Of a DNA stretch of 64,000 nt, positions 35,032 to 58,290 are shown in pieces. Both the position numbers and the translations under genes were made by a program. How positions within the stretch are numbered: position 1 is the first letter of the stretch; each line of letters starts with the position of its first letter. The notes beneath the pieces were generated by a model. It saw only the letters and a program-made list of their open reading frames with translations. It was not told the DNA's origin and did not search any database. The DNA is from Promethearchaeota archaeon (GTDB lineage: Archaea > Asgardarchaeota > Lokiarchaeia > Sigyniarchaeales > SOKP01): positions 1 through 64,000 of the forward strand of contig JAEOSU010000018.1 in assembly GCA_016840165.1 (NCBI GenBank), written 5' to 3'.

Positions 35032-36444
35032 TTAGATATAAGTTTTAATTAACTCTCTTAAATTTTTTGTGAGATTTGGTAGTGACTTTTCAATTTTTTC
35101 TACTCTTAATGCTTTTTCCATGAATAATAATAAATATAGATTATAATTATCTACATTTATTTTTTGAAATACAATTTTTTTAGATTGTTCCGAAATACCG
35201 GAAGTAACAATAAAATCTTTCTTTAATATCTTAAACTCTTTAAATGTCTTATATAAAGTCGTAAAGTGTGGTGCTGAGATTTCAAAAACCTTGTTAGCAA
35301 TATCAGATTTTGAATAATTCGATAAGATGATACCATTTTCATTTAAGAGAAGAATCGCATCAGAATTAACCTTGTCAGAAAACAAACGTAATTGGTTCCG
35401 GAATAATTCACGATTAGGGCTTAGTCGTGAAAGTCCAAATGAATAAGCGGAAATAAGGCTCCAATGATCAAAAATCGATGTTTGAAAGATTTTTATGAAA
35501 AAGGTATGAGAACTTTTGCCTATCTCATTGGTTATATATTCAATATTTTTTTTGATCTCTCTTGATTTCTTTAGATCTGGATCAAACTTATTGATACATA
35601 CTACTATAGGCGGAAACTCATCTAAATTTTTAAGGGAATTGAGAATGTTCTGAAATAATGAAACCGATTCTTTAATTCTTTCAGTATCTTGGACGTCAAT
35701 AAAATAAAACAATAAATCCACATTATACAAATAGACTTTTCCTTGTTCAAGAAACTTTTCTCGATATTTTTTTTGCCCCCCTAAATCCCATATAGATATT
35801 TGGGAGTTTTGTTCCTCAAATAATTTCTCCTCTGTTCTTGAAACTCCCTTTGTGGGTAAAGTTTTTATAATTTCAGAGTATCTCTTCTTTACCGCAAGTA
35901 AGAAACTTGTCTTTCCAGCTCTATCCAAGCCTGTAAATAAAATTTTTAATTGTCTTTTTATCGAAAAAGGATCTTTCAGTTCATTGGTAAACTCAAGTAA
36001 ATCTTTTTTAAGTTGATTCATAATAGCTTTATTCTCCTCTAATGTATTTCGAGCTAATATTTTTGTAGCAGTATTATCGATGATGACCCGCAAATATTTC
36101 ATGTTTTCATAAAAAAATATTTTATTTGTCTCTTCAATTAAAATGGTGATAGTTGCTGCTTTTGCGTTTCCTCTAGCTGCTTTATCAGGGATAAGAAAAA
36201 AATATGTTAATCCATTTAATTTTAAATCGGGAAAAGGTAAGATTCCGAAATAATTAATTCCTTCTATAGTTGTACCGTTTTGATAAACAGAATCGCCCAT
36301 AAGTAGACTTATAGTTTTCATAGCGACTAATAATCGCGCTGACTCATCTAAGTCTTCTGGCCAATAGATTATAGGAGTAGGTCCGTCATCATCAAAAAGG
36401 CTATATACAATTGACTTAATTATCTCTCTTTTCATTTCCGTCAT
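35032..36444 (-). CDS. uDENN/longin-like + Arf/Rag-like GTPase + roadblock-like fusion protein
   Basis: FDDDGP, DKAARG. G1 GLDRAGKTS, G2 LPTKG, G3 WDLGGQ, G4 NKFD, G5 TSIFD. C-terminal AILLLNENGIILS. Confidence 0.85.
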   Translation of the reverse strand: MTEMKREIIKSIVYSLFDDDGPTPIIYWPEDLDESARLLVAMKTISLLMGDSVYQNGTTIEGINYFGILPFPDLKLNGLTYFFLIPDKAARGNAKAATITILIEETNKIFFYENMKYLRVIIDNTATKILARNTLEENKAIMNQLKKDLLEFTNELKDPFSIKRQLKILFTGLDRAGKTSFLLAVKKRYSEIIKTLPTKGVSRTEEKLFEEQNSQISIWDLGGQKKYREKFLEQGKVYLYNVDLLFYFIDVQDTERIKESVSLFQNILNSLKNLDEFPPIVVCINKFDPDLKKSREIKKNIEYITNEIGKSSHTFFIKIFQTSIFDHWSLISAYSFGLSRLSPNRELFRNQLRLFSDKVNSDAILLLNENGIILSNYSKSDIANKVFEISAPHFTTLYKTFKEFKILKKDFIVTSGISEQSKKIVFQKINVDNYNLYLLLFMEKALRVEKIEKSLPNLTKNLRELIKTYI

Positions 36445-36585: not shown

Positions 36586-38379
36586 TTATTTTATAAAATT
36601 AAGACTTTTTATTTCAGTTTTAATCCAAATCTGCCTTAAAAATTCTAATATAGCTTGCTTGGTAGTATAGTTTTGCTTGAATTCTTCTAAACTCACTTTT
36701 TCAGTTGCTCCATGTGAAATTAATGAGTGAAATTTCCCTTGGTTTTCAAGTTTTTTAAATAAATCCATTTCGATATCCTTATCAAATTTTGTAGAATTAG
36801 AATAAGAATCCATTGAAATATGTGGAAAATGACGTTTATCCAATTTAATAAATCGATCTATTGCCCTTTGTGAGGTATCTTCTATGAGAGCAAACTTTCT
36901 CTTATAAATTTTTGAAAATTCATTACAGCTATTAGCCATTTCAGTAACAATGTGCATACCGAGATCAAGTGAGTTAGAAGTCTCATGCATCATGTTATTG
37001 GTCAATATTTTAACCGCCTCATTTAAACCGATAAAACCAATACATAAATCTTGATTTTTTAATTGATAAAGATTAGTTCCCTCAATTAAACTATTACATA
37101 ACGGTAAATGGTTGGTCGAAAGGCGCTTTTTGATGATTTCATATTTTTTGTTCAAGATAGTAGCACATAAGTGCAATTTTTGATTTAAATCCTCCATAAA
37201 TAGCGTTTCATCTCTGTTATTAAATGCAATTCTAGGTAGGTTTATCGAGATCTTCTGAAGAATTCCATGGTTTAAATAACCGTCTAATGTTTTATTCTCT
37301 ATAGTATCATTTAGTTTAAATAATGAAGAATTTAACAGATAGGGGGCTTGATTAGTATTAATCTCATTGATAACTTTTATAAAAGAATCTTGGTATTTAC
37401 TTAACCATTCACTACTACAAAATATTTTATGGACCGGGTATCGAAAAGGATGAGAATAAAAGTCACCCTCTGTAAAGATATCAATGAAACAATCAAAAAG
37501 TTTTAAGCATTCAGAGGAAAAGTCTGAGTATATTCCGTCAACTTTTCCATGAATCCCAATAGCAGTCTCATCTAAGAAGGGTTCAACTATAGTAGGATAA
37601 CATTCTAATGATGATTTAAGATATCGCTTACCAGAGATGGCTGATAAATGATTTATTTCATATATAAAGCTTTTAAGTTCATTTCTAATCTCTGAATCGG
37701 ATAAGTTACCAACTAAGGGTGCTAAAAAAATAGTTAAATGATTAAAGCTTTGGCATCCACAAAATTCATTTTGAATTATACCTGTCCAATTTGCGAGCTG
37801 ATTCAAGGCTTCTCTTAAATTCTGAGGCGGTTTTACTTTATAAGAGAAGCTCTTAAGATCAGTGGGCGGAATTCCGTATTTCAATATGATCCTTGGATCC
37901 CAGGTATGCTCATACGGTCTTAAATCAAAATACTTAAGCTGATGAATGTAGATATCTCCAAATAAATGGGCTTTTGATTCCTCATCAGTTAAAATTCGTA
38001 ATAATGTATATTCTTCTGCCAATTGGTTAGCTGCCCAGTGATGAATCTTCTCGGGATTAATTACACTTCTAATTACATCTTTTTCTACTTTTTCCAAGAT
38101 CTCCTCATAATCCATCAGTGGCATTCCTATGCGGGTATAGAGTTTCCTTTCTTTTTCATAATGATTTTCAGATAAAATAGAACAAACGATCTCTCTTATA
38201 TGGGGTCCAGAAAGGAACTTTATTCCAGAACTTATTATTCTTCTAACTACTAATTCTGTGACGTTTTTAGCCTCTTCTTCTGGCATCCCTGTTTCTTTCA
38301 TGATGCTCTCAAAAATTTTAGAGGCATCAAAATCAACGACATCTCCCTCGGATCGAAAAACTTTAGGTAATAAGTGCAT
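36586..38379 (-). CDS. ATP-cone plus degenerate class III ribonucleotide reductase (NrdD-like pseudoenzyme)
   Basis: ATP-cone V.RSEG...FD..KI, H..GDIYIH, SINLPRIA, IGFIGLNE. No finger-loop GCR, no Zn ribbon, no RxxGY. Start at ATG 38379. Confidence 0.8.
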   Translation of the reverse strand: MHLLPKVFRSEGDVVDFDASKIFESIMKETGMPEEEAKNVTELVVRRIISSGIKFLSGPHIREIVCSILSENHYEKERKLYTRIGMPLMDYEEILEKVEKDVIRSVINPEKIHHWAANQLAEEYTLLRILTDEESKAHLFGDIYIHQLKYFDLRPYEHTWDPRIILKYGIPPTDLKSFSYKVKPPQNLREALNQLANWTGIIQNEFCGCQSFNHLTIFLAPLVGNLSDSEIRNELKSFIYEINHLSAISGKRYLKSSLECYPTIVEPFLDETAIGIHGKVDGIYSDFSSECLKLFDCFIDIFTEGDFYSHPFRYPVHKIFCSSEWLSKYQDSFIKVINEINTNQAPYLLNSSLFKLNDTIENKTLDGYLNHGILQKISINLPRIAFNNRDETLFMEDLNQKLHLCATILNKKYEIIKKRLSTNHLPLCNSLIEGTNLYQLKNQDLCIGFIGLNEAVKILTNNMMHETSNSLDLGMHIVTEMANSCNEFSKIYKRKFALIEDTSQRAIDRFIKLDKRHFPHISMDSYSNSTKFDKDIEMDLFKKLENQGKFHSLISHGATEKVSLEEFKQNYTTKQAILEFLRQIWIKTEIKSLNFIK

Positions 38380-38582
38380 TTTGTCGGAACCTTTTTTATA
38401 TACTCTGTTTTTAGATATTATCTCTAATATTATTATTATAGAGATTTTAAAAAACAATTTATTAACACATTAAAGAGATGTGTATTTATAAAGAAATATT
38501 AGAAAAATTTTGCTAAAATAAGATTTAGATTGTTATTACCTTGGTAACAAAAATGAAATGGAAAATAAAATTTTAGTAATTT

Positions 38583-40331: not shown

Positions 40332-41285
40332 CTATTTATCTAATCCTAAGTATTCTTTCACTTGTTTTTTAACAATATTTGCAGCAAAATTAATAATTCC
40401 TGATTTAATCCGAGGCGATGAGAATATTACCAATATCATGTCATTGCCCAATGTGGTTTCAGTATCAATAGGAGCAAGATCTACAACTCCGTTAGATCCA
40501 CGTACGGAAATATTAAGTAACTTTCCCGCACTTAAACCCTCAATTATATCTTCTCCTATCATCGAAAGATTTTGTCCAATCGTTGCAAATAAATTGTCTG
40601 ACATTCGTGAGGAGATAGCGGAGGCAAGAATCGTTCCATCCTTCTTAATGATGGCTGAAGCTTCAATATGTAAATCTAATTTTAATAATTCTTTAAGAAT
40701 TTCATTCATACTTGAAGGGGGAATAAACTCTTCTTTTTTCTTTTTCTCATATGGTTCTTTTTCTGTTGGGAGTTTTTTTACTGTTATCTTTTTTGATAAG
40801 AAGGTCAATACTTTAGTCATATCCTCCTCTAACTGTTTTTGCTTTACCAAAGATGCTTCGGAATAGGGTGCTTTAGGTACGGGTTGTGGCTTCTCCGTTG
40901 AAGATTTGGAACTATATACTCCTTTTAACCCAATAATTGATCCCTCAAACGGTTTGGGAGTAATCTCCGTAAGGATCTCCTTTTCATCTTCAATATCATC
41001 ATTTTCCTCCTTATGCACTACTAGCTTTTTGGCGTCATCCTTTGAATTATTAACATGGATTTCAACTAATGGTATTTCTTGAAGTTCAGATACTTTGGGC
41101 TTCTTCACGACTTTTGGCTTATTAATAGGTATTTTTTCCCTTGATTTACTCTCTTTTTTCTTTTTTTCTAAAGTAAGTCTTATTCGCGGTGGTTTTGTAG
41201 AAATTGGGAGCAATGCGCCACACTTACGGCATATGTTTCCATCTGCTTCGTTATTGGTCGCACCACAATTACTACATATTATCAT
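40332..41285 (-). CDS. zinc ribbon + disordered linker + roadblock/LC7 domain protein
   Basis: CSNCG...CRKCG. IEASAIIKKDGTILAS...ISVRGSNG roadblock pattern. Confidence 0.82.
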   Translation of the reverse strand: MIICSNCGATNNEADGNICRKCGALLPISTKPPRIRLTLEKKKKESKSREKIPINKPKVVKKPKVSELQEIPLVEIHVNNSKDDAKKLVVHKEENDDIEDEKEILTEITPKPFEGSIIGLKGVYSSKSSTEKPQPVPKAPYSEASLVKQKQLEEDMTKVLTFLSKKITVKKLPTEKEPYEKKKKEEFIPPSSMNEILKELLKLDLHIEASAIIKKDGTILASAISSRMSDNLFATIGQNLSMIGEDIIEGLSAGKLLNISVRGSNGVVDLAPIDTETTLGNDMILVIFSSPRIKSGIINFAANIVKKQVKEYLGLDK

Positions 41286-41565: not shown

Positions 41566-42546
41566 TTATTTAAACAAAATTTCGGTCATTATATTAGCGA
41601 ATGAATCAAAGTCCTCTTTATTAATTGCCGGATCCCCTTTTAACATAAGTATATAATATGGTGTTTTGACATCTCGGATATTTAATTTCTTAAATATAAA
41701 GTTTCTCCCAAATCTTTGTACAATCATCTTACCTTCTTCTTCAATTCTTCCCGGTATGACTTGTGTAAATTGGAAACTGTCATTTAAGGTTAGAAAGTAG
41801 GGAGTGGATGCAGATAAAAGATTTTTAGTTTCCTCATCCTTGTAAAAATATCCAATGATGAGAGAGTTATCATCAATAACCACCACTCCCTCAGAATCTA
41901 CTTTTTTGGCAAATTCATCTATAGTTTTACTAATTAATTCCGCTTTGGGATATAAATTTAATAAAATTTCTGACATTGCGCTAATTATAGAATTTAGATC
42001 ATAAATCGATGTATTATAGTAATAAATGCGCTTATAATCTACAGAACGTCTCAGTTTTTCTTTAAGATCTATTTCTAAACTTTTAAATTCGTTCATTGCA
42101 TTTCGTCTTAATGCTGGGTCATATTTGTGGAAAAAGACATATATAGGAGGTTCAATTTCAAGTTTTCTAAATTGTTCAACCACATCTTTGAAGTAACTCA
42201 TAGCTTCTGGAATTCGTGGTTTGTTTTGAATGTCAATCACATAGATTGCGATCTCTGTTCCATCGAAATACTTCCCTGGGTTCTTAAGATAACTAATTCT
42301 ATAACTGATTTGTCCTCCCAAATCCCATTCGGCTATTTCCCTGCCTAAAAACTCAAAAATACGTCTTTGGGCTCCTCTAGTAGGTTTTAAAAGAGCTATT
42401 TTAGAGAATTCTCTTTGAAGGGCTAAAATTATTGAAGTCTTCCCTGCAGCATCTAAACCTGTAAACAATATTTTCGATTGAGGCTCAGGTGGCTCTTTTT
42501 TTTCTTTTGAAAGGTATTGAATTTCCAAAATAAATTCACCTTGCAA
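41566..42546 (-). CDS. Rag/Arf-like small GTPase with C-terminal roadblock-like domain
   Basis: GLDAAGKTS, KPTRG, WDLGGQ, Rag-type HKYD and TSIYD. True start may be TTG 42528 after GGTGA. Confidence 0.85.
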   Translation of the reverse strand: MQGEFILEIQYLSKEKKEPPEPQSKILFTGLDAAGKTSIILALQREFSKIALLKPTRGAQRRIFEFLGREIAEWDLGGQISYRISYLKNPGKYFDGTEIAIYVIDIQNKPRIPEAMSYFKDVVEQFRKLEIEPPIYVFFHKYDPALRRNAMNEFKSLEIDLKEKLRRSVDYKRIYYYNTSIYDLNSIISAMSEILLNLYPKAELISKTIDEFAKKVDSEGVVVIDDNSLIIGYFYKDEETKNLLSASTPYFLTLNDSFQFTQVIPGRIEEEGKMIVQRFGRNFIFKKLNIRDVKTPYYILMLKGDPAINKEDFDSFANIMTEILFK

Positions 42547-42693: not shown

Positions 42694-43251
42694 CTAAAAA
42701 ATTCCTTCTGAACTTTTGTATGTCAAGTTTTTATCTACAATAAGCTGATTAAGTTTATTTAATACCTCTTCTGGAGATTTAGCTTCGTGAATAATATCAG
42801 TTCGTCTATCGTCAATTTTTTGAGAGGCAATCTTTGAGGACCACCCTTCAATATTACTCATAGCAATTATAGGTTTTTCATAAATCCATGCAAAACACAA
42901 TTCAGAAAGTGTTCCCGCTTTCCCTCCTATAGCAATACAGGCATCTCCCGCGAGAATGACTACAATGTTTCTAGCTTGTGAAAAAGGTACTGGGATCACA
43001 ATATCAATATATTTATTTGCAAACTTTTTTTCCTTAAAAGGAATGATTCCAATCGTCAATCCTCCCGCTTGTTTTGCTCCTTCACAAATTGCTTCCATTA
43101 CACCAGATAATCCTCCGCAAGCAATCGCGTAATGCTCTTCTGCTAATAATCTTCCAAGAGATATAACTGTCTTTTTAGTTGGTTCATCGATCTCACTAGT
43201 TCCAATGACTGAAACGGTTGCTTTAATATCTTTTTTATAATCGAAATTCAT
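42694..43251 (-). CDS. TIGR00725 / LOG-like Rossmann-fold protein
   Basis: CGGLSGVMEA, TIGIIP, ARN, GGKAGTLSE. Confidence 0.88.
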   Translation of the reverse strand: MNFDYKKDIKATVSVIGTSEIDEPTKKTVISLGRLLAEEHYAIACGGLSGVMEAICEGAKQAGGLTIGIIPFKEKKFANKYIDIVIPVPFSQARNIVVILAGDACIAIGGKAGTLSELCFAWIYEKPIIAMSNIEGWSSKIASQKIDDRRTDIIHEAKSPEEVLNKLNQLIVDKNLTYKSSEGIF

Positions 43252-44114: not shown

Positions 44115-45071
44115 TTAGTATTTAATAACTTCTATTGAAGATTTTTTATCATGAATTTTTAATATGGGTTCTTTTATAATTTTGCCAATAATCATGGCAT
44201 CCAATCCATAAAAACTAAATATTTTTATTGCTTCATCGCAATTCTCTAATGGAGCGGTTAAAACAAATGAAGTCGTTAAGTACATTTTGCTGTATTGCTC
44301 TAAAGAATAATTTTGTGCTATTAACTTAGGAGGGATACTTATAGAATCAATATCGATATTGGCCCCCACAGAAGAATATTTTACAATTTGTAAAATTGAA
44401 CCAAAGATACCACCATTCGAGATATCTTTTGAGGCATTAATAATATGTGCATGTGCGATTTGATTCATTGCATTTCTTTTGTATAAGACTTGATCACTTG
44501 ATTTAAATGTAACTGTATCCCAATATAGCTTATTTGCTTTTGCAACTTTACCGTCAAAATCAACAGCTAAAATTATTGCGTCACCAATTTGAGCATTCTT
44601 TGCTGAGATATAATCCTGTTTTAAAATTTCACCAACCATAGTGGAACTTAATTCATATGACTCACTACGTGGTTTTGTGTGGCCTCGAATGATAGGTACT
44701 TGAAATTTTGTGGAGCCTTCACAGATCCCCTCTATGATCTCTTGTCCGATTTTTGGATCTTTATAGGAAAGAATTAGACTTGCTGCTAAAGGTCTTCCTC
44801 CACAGCAGAAGATATCATCTACTCCTACGAGTATGGAACTGAATCCTGCACCATAGGGATAAGCTTTAATATAGTTAGTGTTTATTCTATCTGTTGTAAC
44901 TAATATATAGGTATCTTGATCATTTATAGCTGCAGAATCCTCACCCAAATCGGAATAAATTCTAGGACTTTTATAAGTCTTATCATTAATATACTGAACA
45001 ATTGGGCTTATTTCTTTTTTTTCAATGATGTTTTGATTTTTACGAATAGAATCTGCGATTTCTTCAAGCAT
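44115..45071 (-). CDS. AIR synthase-related (PurM-like; methanogenesis marker 2 / sll0787-like) protein
   Basis: GEDSAAI, VDDI...GGRP, GHT, KDISNGG. Confidence 0.82.
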   Translation of the reverse strand: MLEEIADSIRKNQNIIEKKEISPIVQYINDKTYKSPRIYSDLGEDSAAINDQDTYILVTTDRINTNYIKAYPYGAGFSSILVGVDDIFCCGGRPLAASLILSYKDPKIGQEIIEGICEGSTKFQVPIIRGHTKPRSESYELSSTMVGEILKQDYISAKNAQIGDAIILAVDFDGKVAKANKLYWDTVTFKSSDQVLYKRNAMNQIAHAHIINASKDISNGGIFGSILQIVKYSSVGANIDIDSISIPPKLIAQNYSLEQYSKMYLTTSFVLTAPLENCDEAIKIFSFYGLDAMIIGKIIKEPILKIHDKKSSIEVIKY

Positions 45072-45165: not shown

Positions 45166-46671
45166 ATGGAAGAGTTAATTAAATCTTCAATTATTAAATC
45201 AATAGTATTTTCGATTTATGGAGAGTTAGGACCTCAAGCACTATATATATGGCCTGAAATCATAAAGAAGGATACTAATAGTTCCAATTCTTCATTTAAT
45301 ATTGAGGAAAATATTGTATATCTAACCAATAGAGATGCAACTCAAATCGCTATTAAAAATTTGAGTTTATTAATTGGAGATGGTAGCATTTTAGAAAAAT
45401 CTAATTTAGATGAATATCGATATTTTGGGATTATTCCCTTTCCTGATTATAACTTAACCTCATTAACATTTTTTCATTTTACGAATGTTAATTATTCAGA
45501 AAAACCCTTACCATCAGCATGTTCGATTTTAATCGATGAATCGAAACGAAGTTTTTTGTATAATAATATCGAGAGATTTAAAGAATTGATTGTAGATTTT
45601 TGTACAACATTAGATAAAGAAAATGCAAAGGAACTTAAGTCTCAAAAAGAGCTCGAATCTTTATTCAAAAACCTTATCAATGAAATTATTTTAATAGAAA
45701 AGGAACCTACAACGCCTATCTCCGCTCATCGAAAACTTAAAATCATTATGGCAGGTCTTGATGATTCTGGAAAAACTTCCTTTTTACTTTCAGTAGATAG
45801 AAAGTATTCTAAATTAATAGGACTTAAACCTACCAGAGGAGCAAAAGTCAATTCGATTGAAGCTTTAGGAGCAACCATCTTTATATGGGATTTAGGCGGT
45901 CAGTTGGGTTTACGTAAAAAATATCTAAATAAAGCTCAATTATATCTCTATGAGGCGGATCTCTTGTTTTATTTTATTGATATTCGAAATAAAGCTAGAT
46001 TTAAAGAAAGTATTGAGTATCTAACCAAGATTAAGAACGTTCTAGATGGTTTTGAACAATCCACACCAATTATTTTTATTTTTTCAAAAGGCGATCCTGA
46101 TATAATTGATTCTAAAGAGATCAAAAATAATATCAAACTAATTACTACGGAATTAGAAAAATTAACTCCCAATGGTAAACCAGAGATCTACAATACAACG
46201 ATATTTCAATTATTTTCCATATTGAGAGCTTTTTCATCGGGAATAGCAAAACTAAGCCCCAACCGAGATTTAATAGAGTTAAATTTAAGTAGATTTTCCG
46301 AACAAACCCAAACATTTTTAACTTTACTTTTAAGTATGGATGGTCTTGTGCTAGCAGATCATTACACCACCGAAGCATTGAAACTAACTAAAGTGCCGAA
46401 ATCTGAAGAAATCCTTAATATATTTGAAATAACAGCCCCTCAATTTGCAATGTTATTCAAAATTTTTTCAAAATATAGGGCTGTTAAAAAAGATGAGGCA
46501 ATATTCAAGGTCGCAAAATCAGTCATCTTTTTTAAAAGAATTAGGATTTCCGAAACTGATATGTTCCTTTTATTTTTATTAGACGATGAAAAGAAAAAAG
46601 ATCAAATTAATGAGAATTTATCTAGCTTTCTAAATCAAACTCAAGATCTTCTTCTTCGCTATATTTCCTAA
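45166..46671 (+). CDS. uDENN/longin-like + Arf/Rag-like GTPase + roadblock-like fusion protein (paralog of 35032..36444)
   Basis: IIKSIVFS..ELGP, YFGIIPFPD. GLDDSGKTS, KPTRG, WDLGGQ, SKGD. Shares LSPNR and FEI.AP.F..L.K.F with the paralog. Confidence 0.85.
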   Translation: MEELIKSSIIKSIVFSIYGELGPQALYIWPEIIKKDTNSSNSSFNIEENIVYLTNRDATQIAIKNLSLLIGDGSILEKSNLDEYRYFGIIPFPDYNLTSLTFFHFTNVNYSEKPLPSACSILIDESKRSFLYNNIERFKELIVDFCTTLDKENAKELKSQKELESLFKNLINEIILIEKEPTTPISAHRKLKIIMAGLDDSGKTSFLLSVDRKYSKLIGLKPTRGAKVNSIEALGATIFIWDLGGQLGLRKKYLNKAQLYLYEADLLFYFIDIRNKARFKESIEYLTKIKNVLDGFEQSTPIIFIFSKGDPDIIDSKEIKNNIKLITTELEKLTPNGKPEIYNTTIFQLFSILRAFSSGIAKLSPNRDLIELNLSRFSEQTQTFLTLLLSMDGLVLADHYTTEALKLTKVPKSEEILNIFEITAPQFAMLFKIFSKYRAVKKDEAIFKVAKSVIFFKRIRISETDMFLLFLLDDEKKKDQINENLSSFLNQTQDLLLRYIS

Positions 46672-55845: not shown

Positions 55846-56889
55846 ATGATAAACCAAGATATTATTACCGCTGTGTTGTATATCCAATTAGATGATGAAG
55901 TAGGTCCTAATCCCGTTGTAACTCTTCCTAAGGATTTTGCTAATGTAAATAAGATGCATGTCAGTATTAAAGTGATTACGGTACTTTCGGGAGAACATGG
56001 TAATGTTCCAAAAAAATTGGTCATTCTACCGTTTCCTTCTCTAAAATTAAAAGGAATTATTAAATATATTAAGTGGGACGATCCTAAACGAAGAGGAGGC
56101 ATTGGTCAGGCAGCAATAGCCATTTTATTTGAGGATATAAACGATGTTATCTTTTACAAATATTTTGAACAATTGAGCGACTCTTTCGAGGAAATAGGAA
56201 AAATCTTTAGAAATTTGGAAGAAAATAGATCTAAATTGGAAGAAATCGAAAAAGAAGTTAAGAATTTAATTAATAGAATCAAAACAGTACTTAATGAGCT
56301 ACGGATTGATGAAACATCTCAATCTGAATCAAAAGAATTTCCAAAACTTAAACTTAAAGATTCAACAATGATAGATTATAAATTCAAAATCATTGTGTTA
56401 GGAGATCCGGGAGTGGGAAAAACCTCGCTTATATTAAGATACACTGATAACGCTTTTCGAAGAAGTTATATTCCTACCTTAGGGGTGCACGTTAGTGATA
56501 AGATCTTTAAAATAGATGATGCCGTTGTTCAACTTGTAATCTGGGATTTAGCAGGACAACAAAAATTCGATACAATGCGTCATCAATTCTATGTTGGTTC
56601 TGATGGTTTTATTTTGGTATTTGATTTGACTAATCTCAATTCTTTTGAGAATTTATCTAACTGGTTTCTAGATATACAAAATCAATTCAAGGATCAAACT
56701 AACTTAATGGGTTATGTTATCGGAAATAAATGTGATTTAAGAGAGCAAGTTAAAATTAAATCGGAAAATGCAAAAGAATTAGCCTCTTATCTAAACCTTA
56801 ACTTTATTGAAACATCAGCTTTATCTGGTTTAAATGTTAATAAAGTTTTTACACAATTAGCAAAATCTTTATATACTTCATTTACTTAA
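55846..56889 (+). CDS. uDENN/longin-like + Rab-like GTPase fusion, paralog 1
   Basis: LDDEVGP, DPKRRG. GDPGVGKTS, YIPTLG, WDLAGQ, GNKCD, ETSAL. Confidence 0.88.
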   Translation: MINQDIITAVLYIQLDDEVGPNPVVTLPKDFANVNKMHVSIKVITVLSGEHGNVPKKLVILPFPSLKLKGIIKYIKWDDPKRRGGIGQAAIAILFEDINDVIFYKYFEQLSDSFEEIGKIFRNLEENRSKLEEIEKEVKNLINRIKTVLNELRIDETSQSESKEFPKLKLKDSTMIDYKFKIIVLGDPGVGKTSLILRYTDNAFRRSYIPTLGVHVSDKIFKIDDAVVQLVIWDLAGQQKFDTMRHQFYVGSDGFILVFDLTNLNSFENLSNWFLDIQNQFKDQTNLMGYVIGNKCDLREQVKIKSENAKELASYLNLNFIETSALSGLNVNKVFTQLAKSLYTSFT

Positions 56890-57237: not shown

Positions 57238-58290
57238 TTGGATAGAGCGATCATTCATTCCATAGTATACACTGAATTTAATGATGAATTAGGTCCAAAT
57301 CCACTTTTTTGTCTTCCACAAGATTTGTCAGAGAACATTTCAATGCTTGTAAGCATTAAAACGGTTACGATCCTCTCAGCTGATCATGGTTTTATACCAG
57401 ATTCGCTTATAATTATTCCTTTTCCCTCGTTGAAATTAAAAGGTTTAATTAAATATATAGAAAGAGACGACGAATCAAGACGGGGAAAAGTTGCTCAATC
57501 TGCAATCACATTTTTATTTCGAGAAGTTGAAGATATCCTCTTTTATAAATATATGAACTATTTCAATTCTCCTTTTAATGAGACCACCCGTAAAATAGTT
57601 GAATTAGAAAATCAAAATCAGGATAAATCGCTGATATTTAGAGAAATTGAGAATTTAAAAGATAGTATTCACGCATTATTAAAAGATTTTAGGATTAAAG
57701 AATTTCAGCAATTCTCTTATAAAGAATTTCCTGAAATAAAAAAATTAACTGAAAAAGAAGTTGATTTAAAGGCGAAAATAGTAATTATTGGAGATCCAGG
57801 AGTCGGAAAAACAAGTACTATTTTACGTTTTACTGATAATGCATTTAAAAGAAGCTATATCCCCACTATGGGCACAAACATAACTGAAAAGAGTTTTAGA
57901 GTTAAGGATAATATAATAGAGTTGATTCTATGGGATTTAGCAGGACAAAGTAAGTTCGAACTTATGCGAAAACATTTTTATCAAGGCGCTGAAGCTGTTA
58001 TACTTATTTTTGATTTAACAAATCCTAAATCCTTTCAAAGTGTAATTCAGTGGTTTGAAGATATCGAGAATAACTTAATACTTGAGCATGAGCTTATTGG
58101 ATGTCTCTTTGGAAACAAAACTGATTTAACTAATGGACGTAAAATTGGTACTAATGAAGCACAAAAATTAGCCTCCCAGTTAAATCTAGATTACTTTGAA
58201 ACTTCGGCTCTAACAGGAAAAAATGTAGAAAATGCATTTTATAAGATCGCAGAGAAAATTATTGAAGTAAGAAAGCCAGATTTAGCATAA
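57238..58290 (+). CDS. uDENN/longin-like + Rab-like GTPase fusion, paralog 2
   Basis: EFNDELGP, DESRRG. GDPGVGKTS, YIPTMG, WDLAGQ, GNKTD, ETSAL. Confidence 0.88.
   Translation: MDRAIIHSIVYTEFNDELGPNPLFCLPQDLSENISMLVSIKTVTILSADHGFIPDSLIIIPFPSLKLKGLIKYIERDDESRRGKVAQSAITFLFREVEDILFYKYMNYFNSPFNETTRKIVELENQNQDKSLIFREIENLKDSIHALLKDFRIKEFQQFSYKEFPEIKKLTEKEVDLKAKIVIIGDPGVGKTSTILRFTDNAFKRSYIPTMGTNITEKSFRVKDNIIELILWDLAGQSKFELMRKHFYQGAEAVILIFDLTNPKSFQSVIQWFEDIENNLILEHELIGCLFGNKTDLTNGRKIGTNEAQKLASQLNLDYFETSALTGKNVENAFYKIAEKIIEVRKPDLA

Follow-up and report, generated by a model that had tools for sequence, protein, structure and literature searches.

Comparative analysis identifies an arginine-less longin-GTPase-roadblock protein as one member of an old, order-wide paralog pair in Lokiarchaeia

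We analysed a stretch of 64,000 nucleotides from a Promethearchaeota archaeon (Asgardarchaeota; Lokiarchaeia; Sigyniarchaeales; SOKP01), corresponding to positions 1 to 64,000 of contig JAEOSU010000018.1 in assembly GCA_016840165.1 and hereafter called the window. Two of its open reading frames (ORFs), both intact, encode longin-GTPase-roadblock (LGR) proteins. The first, A (P0001; 45166..46671, + strand), has 501 residues and no arginine finger. The second, B (P0002; 35032..36444, − strand), has 470 residues and is the arginine-bearing paralog, with Arg91 encoded at 36172-36174. The two proteins align end to end with 33% identity (BLASTP, E 7e-88), far above chance, and by this comparison they are full-length paralogs. 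Our analysis identifies A as the arginine-less member of an old LGR pair found across one order of Lokiarchaeia. Judged from its orthologs, the A longin has kept its fold and its Gly-Pro (GP) motif, has lost the catalytic arginine and is under relaxed constraint.

A preliminary description of the window, made from the letters alone, had assigned the same three-domain layout to both ORFs. This is borne out by AlphaFold2 (AF2) models of good to fair quality (pLDDT 81 and pTM 0.80 for A; pLDDT 74 and pTM 0.62 for B), by structure matches and by Pfam. The longin domain of A (residues 1-182; 45166..45711, + strand) is of the folliculin/SMCR8/C9orf72 type, with the GP motif at G22-P23. In the model it comprises strands β1-β5, with a loop between β4 (97-106) and β5 (115-124), and residues 5-183 superpose on a solved Lokiarchaeal longin dimer (8yqg_B) with Z 17.5 and a root-mean-square deviation of 2.4 over 145 aligned residues (VIA, exhaustive structure alignment). 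The G domain (residues 190-361; 45733..46248, + strand) contains G1 GLDDSGKT, G2 Thr223, G3 WDLGGQ, G4 SKGD (residues 307-310; 46084-46095, + strand) and G5 TTIF, and is followed by the roadblock domain (residues 362-501; 46249..46668, + strand), which carries LSPNR and FEITAPQF. In VIA comparisons, residues 190-496 match LokiRagO (8yl2, Z 21.5), RagC (6nzd_G, Z 19.6) and a fission-yeast Gtr chain (8fw5_E, Z 18.8), and residues 360-501 match MglB (3t1r_A, Z 13.6) and the roadblock protein 3kye_A (Z 12.7). Foldseek aligned about 310 columns of A with RagA/C and Gtr1/2 (E 1e-15). The B longin matches 8yqg_B with Z 17.9, a C9orf72-SMCR8 chain (7o2w_A) with Z 13.9, the Lst4 longin with Z 12.2 and a chain of the FLCN-FNIP2 complex with Z 10.5. 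Pfam Gtr1_RagA and Arf were matched in both proteins (for A, E 3.3e-16 and 2.1e-16, respectively). Overall, the models together with structure matches to each part support a longin, a Rag/Arf-like G domain and a roadblock domain as the predicted layout of A and B.

All the sequence features quoted in the preliminary description, namely the shared blocks, the A loop lacking RG, SKGD, TTIFQ and a spacing of about 9 kb, are present as given. The distance between the two genes is 8.7 kb. The blocks common to both proteins are IIKSIV (A 9-14, B 8-13), YFGI.PFPD (A 86-94, B 65-73), LLFYFID (A 266-272, B 244-250), LSPNR (A 363-367, B 341-345) and FEI.AP.F (A 420-427, B 387-394). The β4-β5 loop of A, TNVNYSEKP (residues 106-114; 45481..45507, + strand), is aligned with DKAARGNAKAA of B (87-97), so that a segment without arginine stands opposite the ARG of B. 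The G motifs also differ, with SKGD in A (307-310) against NKFD in B at G4, and TTIFQ in A (344-348) against TSIFD in B at G5.

Ortholog sets were assembled from Lokiarchaeial metagenomes for A (n=120; about 500 residues, 57-88% identity) and for B (n=121; 470 residues, 71-98% identity). ARG is found in the β4-β5 loop of 121/121 B orthologs, where the loop follows the pattern A-R-G-N-A-(K/T)-A-A. At the homologous position, an arginine is found in 0/120 A orthologs. Hence, the missing arginine that the preliminary description had read from a single copy is a property of the family. Across orthologs, no other stretch of the A protein varies as much as this loop, and 24 of the 120 have an arginine elsewhere in the 14 aligned loop columns, at unconserved positions. 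On the other hand, the GP motif, which precedes strand β2 and is reported to be specific to longins of the GTPase-activating protein (GAP) type (PMC12290439), is invariant in the A family as well as in the B family.

The nucleotide-binding elements of A are well kept. Columns K203, T223, D242, G245, Q246, K308 and D310 are invariant in the A family; within the window's own family, G1, Thr223 and WDLGGQ do not vary among A orthologs. Given these invariant elements, including Lys308 and Asp310, A in the window's family is plausibly a working GTP-binding switch. The preliminary description had set SKGD against NKxD. The sequence is as it stated, and no defect attaches to it: the lysine and the aspartate are retained, SKGD is constant across A orthologs, and the comparison identifies it as a conserved family variant. 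We reject decay as an explanation of SKGD or TTIF, both being conserved variants in a family where Lys308 and Asp310 do not vary.

Constraint is distributed very differently along the two proteins. Within each family, pairwise identity of the longin core is 0.54 for A and 0.83 for B, and that of the β4-β5 loop is 0.35 for A and 0.79 for B. The corresponding values are 0.73 and 0.78 for the G domain and 0.65 and 0.81 for the roadblock domain. By this measure the longin is the best-kept domain of B and the worst-kept domain of A, and we conclude from the alignments that in A the relaxation of constraint falls mainly on the longin domain. Such a longin-specific relaxation is what would be expected if the B longin were catalytic and the A longin were not; it fits a protein that has given up a catalytic role but kept its switch.

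The link to folliculin is weak at the sequence level, where it stays below threshold and comes from Pfam only. Pfam Folliculin (PF11704) was matched, sub-threshold, in residues 79-137 of B and not in A. The best match in B reached E 3.8e-5 and 18 bits, against a gathering cut-off of 23.3. Such a sub-threshold match occurs in 56/112 scanned members, a count equal to the number of B members and therefore apparently comprising all B-type N-domains, and in 0/10 scanned A-type N-domains. Profile searches of PDB sequences with mixed and with B-only N-domain alignments found no longin GAPs. A look-up of the A N-domain in the ESM Atlas gave best values of 0.88 and 0.84, both below 0.9, the second being a cluster with 19% NPR2 annotation, which we take as a lead only. 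A whole-library profile search with the B N-domain recovered 145 representatives; matches of 530-680 residues, considered as eukaryotic folliculins, are actually longer LGR variants (Pfam Gtr1_RagA). Separately, the LGR-length representatives P0260, P0265 and P0357 lack a loop arginine in other loop and GP contexts (GPTP-VYWDL), and may be independent finger losses outside the A clade.

The pair is restricted in distribution and old within it. When 201 genomes of the phylum were searched (E <= 1e-30), LGR proteins turned up only in the window's own order, in 39/40 genomes of the window's family (f1) and 3/3 of a sister family (f2); 0/158 genomes of 25 other families had one at this threshold. 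In a tree rooted on GTPase-roadblock paralogs, all A copies of the two families fall in one clade (SH-aLRT 97) and all B copies in the other (SH-aLRT 80), which includes the sole LGR found in family f29. A branches are longer than B branches. This topology places the A/B split before the separation of the two families. This tree, built without eukaryotic sequences, joins A and B as nearest relatives within one order, and this points to a separate Lokiarchaeal duplication rather than to the RagA/RagC split. The parallel with RagA/RagC drawn in the preliminary description holds as far as a pair of paralogs is concerned and probably does not extend to orthology.

In the sister family, A-type copies (about 505 residues) have no loop arginine either, read TKxD at G4 and have WDIPGK or WDIPGS at G3, which means that the catalytic glutamine is lost. 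The sequences concerned are L014 (G094:C51), L016 (G089:C19), L044, L046 and L047. A thus looks hydrolysis-impaired in that lineage. B-type copies of the sister family keep ARG(Q/K)AKAA, WDVGGQ and the Rag-type HKxD. These sister-family motifs equal those printed for two proteins of the cultured Prometheoarchaeum MK-D1, the A-like WP_147663364.1 and the B-like WP_147663355.1 (PMC10933270, supplement). From this identity of motifs, an arginine-bearing and arginine-less LGR pair is most likely present in MK-D1 as well.

The two types co-occur, and this, like the missing arginine of the A orthologs and the age of the split, is in favour of the reading in the preliminary description. Both were found in 36/41 genomes of the window's family in which both rows were readable. 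At E <= 1e-50, about 103/132 genomes of this family have at least two LGR-type matches, not each checked individually, and 10/14 sister-family genomes have two. Genomes with a single copy (10 A-only and 10 B-only in the raw counts) were considered as evidence against pairing and rejected, because they are mostly assembly artefacts, with a single verified loss (G138). In G252, apparently A-only, a joint of 100 N lies just upstream of the A start codon (L028 1388-1487; G252:C1); in G262, also A-only, the contig ends inside the block; in G049, B lies 2.7 kb from the contig start. G252, listed as one contig, is a scaffold with 100-N spacers (L028, L037), and absences there are unreliable.

A and B lie within a collinear 12-gene block, which is collinear in 21/21 loci compared in the window's family. 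Its order begins with a transglutaminase-like gene, B, an NrdD-like gene, an endonuclease-like gene, a zinc-ribbon-roadblock gene and a GTPase-roadblock gene; it continues with a LOG-like gene, a membrane zinc-ribbon protein gene (some loci only), a PurM-like gene, A and an MtrH-like gene. The GTPase-roadblock gene of the window (41566..42546, − strand) is a third Rag-like gene, whose place within the conserved block is always between the other two. Its product has 326 residues and HKYD at G4, and it is the LokiRagO ortholog (phmmer against 8yl2, E 2.9e-90, full length). Directly downstream lies a gene for a protein with a zinc ribbon, a charged linker and a roadblock domain (40332..41285, − strand). 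Both genes are kept in 21/21 loci, and their products are possible further members of the module.

Among the other neighbours, the NrdD-like ORF (36586-38457, − strand) adjoins B. Its relatives match mostly over about 100 N-terminal residues only, and its size or integrity seems to vary among genomes. A PurM/AIR-synthase-like gene (44115-45071, − strand) is divergent from A across a spacer of 94 nt, and a LOG-like gene (42694-43251, − strand) also belongs to the block; both stay beside A even in the sister-family genome (G205) where the block is split. Farther along the window, two tandem genes (55846-56889 and 57238-58290, + strand) encode longin-Rab-like fusions whose longins are of the same subtype, with a GP motif and an RRG loop. 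An iterated search of the whole genome with hidden Markov models found this longin subtype in only four proteins, namely A, B and the two Rab-like fusions, all within 23 kb.

How might the two members of the pair work? In the solved C9orf72-SMCR8-ARF1 complex, an arginine-less, GP-bearing longin (C9orf72) holds the GTPase and SMCR8 supplies Arg147 (PMC8213707; PMC12290439). By analogy, A and B would dimerise, with contacts between their roadblock domains, like those of Rag C-terminal domains, and also between their longin domains, as in SMCR8-C9orf72. Such a dimer would have one arginine finger only, that of B, which the non-catalytic longin of A would cradle, and only one G domain would be stimulated at a time. 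It would thereby be inherently asymmetric, as eukaryotic Rag dimers with their longin GAPs are. In this scheme we infer a GAP activity for the B arginine, an A:B contact and the G domain on which the finger acts. We tentatively favour a physiological A:B heterodimer, as the preliminary description had proposed, while holding it somewhat more doubtful than assured. A stronger version, which we consider unlikely, has an obligate asymmetric A:B dimer forming a self-contained proto-Rag/longin-GAP machine. Here the B finger would act on one of the fused G domains and the halves would take opposite nucleotide states as in RagA/RagC; the arrangement would have arisen independently in Lokiarchaeia, with A turning into a glutamine-less pseudo-GTPase in the MK-D1 lineage.

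Complex prediction suggests, weakly, that A and B bind. Full-length A and B together gave an ipSAE of 0.48 in each of three runs, against 0.00 for the highest-scoring of three controls; the runs agreed in at least 85% of contacts, partner pLDDT was at least 77, and the output named no interface. In the calibration, the ipSAE mark was reached by 58/80 solved complexes and by 2/110 mismatched pairs, counts that hold only roughly for A and B, whose prediction used alignments of our own. In addition, of all roadblock elements, helix α2 (413-436) holds the largest number of residues that are conserved in the A family as well as in the B family. This helix is the dimer interface of roadblock domains in MglB, in LAMTOR and in Rag C-terminal domains. 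Its conservation across both paralogs means that nothing in the sequence forbids mixed dimers. Rates of evolution were also compared for 28 gene pairs of the block in 21 genomes, an exploratory exercise in which the genomes are kin and not independent and from which no significance is drawn. A and B had the highest raw correlation of the 28 pairs (r 0.94), with a partial r of 0.45. The GTPase-roadblock gene gave partial r values of 0.51 with the zinc-ribbon-roadblock gene and 0.36 with B.

Several observations weigh against an A:B heterodimer. The score falls in a weak band; only 7/80 solved complexes, together with both passing mismatches, have an ipSAE <=0.60. The prediction does not discriminate A:B from A:A or B:B, and the pass may partly reflect memory of solved Rag heterodimers. 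The conserved interface helix argues equally for homodimers, and partial rate correlations are similar or higher elsewhere, reaching 0.53 between A and the GTPase-roadblock gene and 0.52 between the LOG-like and PurM-like genes. A and B lie on opposite strands, in separate transcription units 8.7 kb apart. The block, recognisable in sister-family genomes G211 and G216, is split by 80 kb in G205; it is conserved as a whole, unrelated genes included and equally so, and synteny is thus not specific to A and B. Given these unrelated genes, the opposite strands and the separate transcription units, linkage is weak evidence for physical pairing. Moreover, A has been lost by decay from G138, a genome 99% complete in which B is intact and the block is otherwise intact. 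The gap between the PurM-like and MtrH-like genes there (L041 13617-14338, G138:C51) measures only 720 bp and holds a 41-nt remnant of A, which matches the LSPNR region of a same-genus A gene (83% identity, E 6e-6). B can therefore persist without A and is not strictly dependent on it. Finally, PDB titles describe 8yl2 as a homotetramer with GTP, 8zla as a monomer and 8yqg as a homodimeric longin; longin-containing GTPases, LGRs included, were modelled only as homodimers, with typical interfaces, and the only Rag-like pair predicted to be heterodimeric in MK-D1 is operonic (Tran et al. 2024, PMC10933270).

Much of this would be expected if A and B were separate switches, a reading we regard as possible though doubtful. 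Each would be homodimeric or monomeric; B would stimulate itself through its built-in arginine finger, and A would be a slower, long-lived switch whose longin has turned from a GAP into an effector or localisation platform. The separate transcription units, the survival of B in G138, the interface helix conserved in both paralogs, the predicted LGR homodimers and the homo-oligomeric or monomeric state, by PDB titles, of the solved Lokiarchaeal Rag-like, longin and roadblock proteins all speak for it, as does the full set of G motifs that A keeps in the window's family. However, an A homodimer would bring together two GP-bearing longins and no finger, and the known eukaryotic arginine-less GP longin, C9orf72, works only beside an arginine-bearing partner (PMC8213707). 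In the sister family, the additional loss of the catalytic glutamine makes A look more like a pseudo-enzyme partner than an independent switch. The A:B combination also scored above all three controls in complex prediction.

A larger hetero-oligomer, or pairing with the other block products (41566-42546 and 40332-41285) in a Rag-Ragulator-like assembly, would make the A:B contact possibly indirect. Roadblock domains dimerise promiscuously in Ragulator, and LokiRagO is tetrameric by PDB title. The four genes have the same order in 21/21 loci of the window's family, as A, B and the GTPase-roadblock gene also do in the sister family, and the exploratory partial rate correlations linking the GTPase-roadblock gene to A, to B and to the zinc-ribbon-roadblock gene are in line with such an assembly. 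We nevertheless hold it quite improbable, for the block also contains unrelated genes that are equally conserved, and in the G211 block the query used did not recover the zinc-ribbon-roadblock gene. Pairing of the A longin with the arginine-bearing longins of the Rab-like fusions instead of B is suggested by the presence of only four proteins with this longin subtype in the genome, all within 23 kb, and by the GP and RRG motifs of both fusions, and is very improbable, as the fusions have no roadblock domain and, being in tandem, could pair with each other. That none of these four arrangements applies is hardly to be expected.

The A:B heterodimer thus remains our tentative choice, with the prediction score in its favour, and with the lack of discrimination from homodimers, the separate transcription units and the loss of A in G138 standing against it. 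We found no paper describing LGR paralogs as an arginine-bearing and arginine-less pair conserved across an order, and none describing relaxation confined to the A longin or loss of the catalytic glutamine in A of the MK-D1 type. Eukaryotic nutrient signalling rests on two asymmetries, that of unlike Rag pairs and that of catalytic and non-catalytic longin GAP pairs. Here, the two fused longin-Rag-roadblock proteins conserved as a pair in an archaeal order are set apart by precisely the catalytic arginine and, in one lineage, by the catalytic glutamine too. If A and B bind, then a prokaryote with neither lysosomes nor TOR can evolve the catalytic and non-catalytic division of labour among longin GAPs, and perhaps unequal Rag loading, and the system would be approachable as two soluble proteins from cultured MK-D1. 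Should they not bind, the pair is still a natural experiment on a folliculin-type longin after loss of its arginine.

The longin-GTPase-roadblock layout itself has been published (Tran et al. 2024, PMC10933270; Liu et al., preprint 10.1101/2020.10.19.343400), and longins of the folliculin/SMCR8 type with GP and arginine are present in Asgard archaea (Traffic 2025, PMC12290439). The MK-D1 LGRs have the same three-domain order as A and B (PMC10933270). By their G motifs, WP_147663364.1 (GLENTGKT, WDIPGK, TKV..D) resembles A and WP_147663355.1 (WDL.GQ, HKMD) resembles B; the presence or absence of the arginine and the order-wide conservation of the pair were not noted in that paper. A difference lies in the catalytic glutamine, which A of the window keeps and A of the MK-D1 type has lost.

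For the G and roadblock part of A, the closest matches in sequence and structure are two solved Lokiarchaeal proteins, LokiRagO (8YL2) and LokiRagM (8ZLA/9M28) (E 5.1e-27, Z 21.5). They have no longin and are a homotetramer and a monomer, respectively, by PDB titles, and the true LokiRagO ortholog in the window is the product of 41566-42546. Literature searches found no paper on entries 8YL2, 8ZLA and 8YQG.

The eukaryotic Rag/Gtr proteins (RagA/B-RagC/D; Gtr1-Gtr2) likewise come as two paralogs with a G domain and a C-terminal roadblock. A and B have an additional N-terminal longin, and the heterodimer established for Rag/Gtr is putative here. At G4, where Rag/Gtr proteins have HKxD, SKGD is found throughout the A orthologs; B has NKFD in the window and HKxD in sister families.

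The likeness to eukaryotic longin GAP pairs drawn in the preliminary description is apt. In C9orf72-SMCR8, FLCN-FNIP and NPRL2-NPRL3, as in A and B, two paralogs share the longin fold, one with the loop arginine and one without. Since A keeps the GP motif, C9orf72/SMCR8 is the closest of these pairs, GP being present in both of its members as it is in A and B (PMC12290439). The WD motif that precedes GP in C9orf72 (PMC12290439) is absent from A, which reads YGELGP within a family consensus of Y-G/D-K-L-G-P. A also has no DENN domain; a G domain and a roadblock domain follow the longin instead. Unlike the C9orf72-SMCR8-type pairs, A and B carry their longins fused in cis to the GTPase that would be the substrate of a putative GAP activity.

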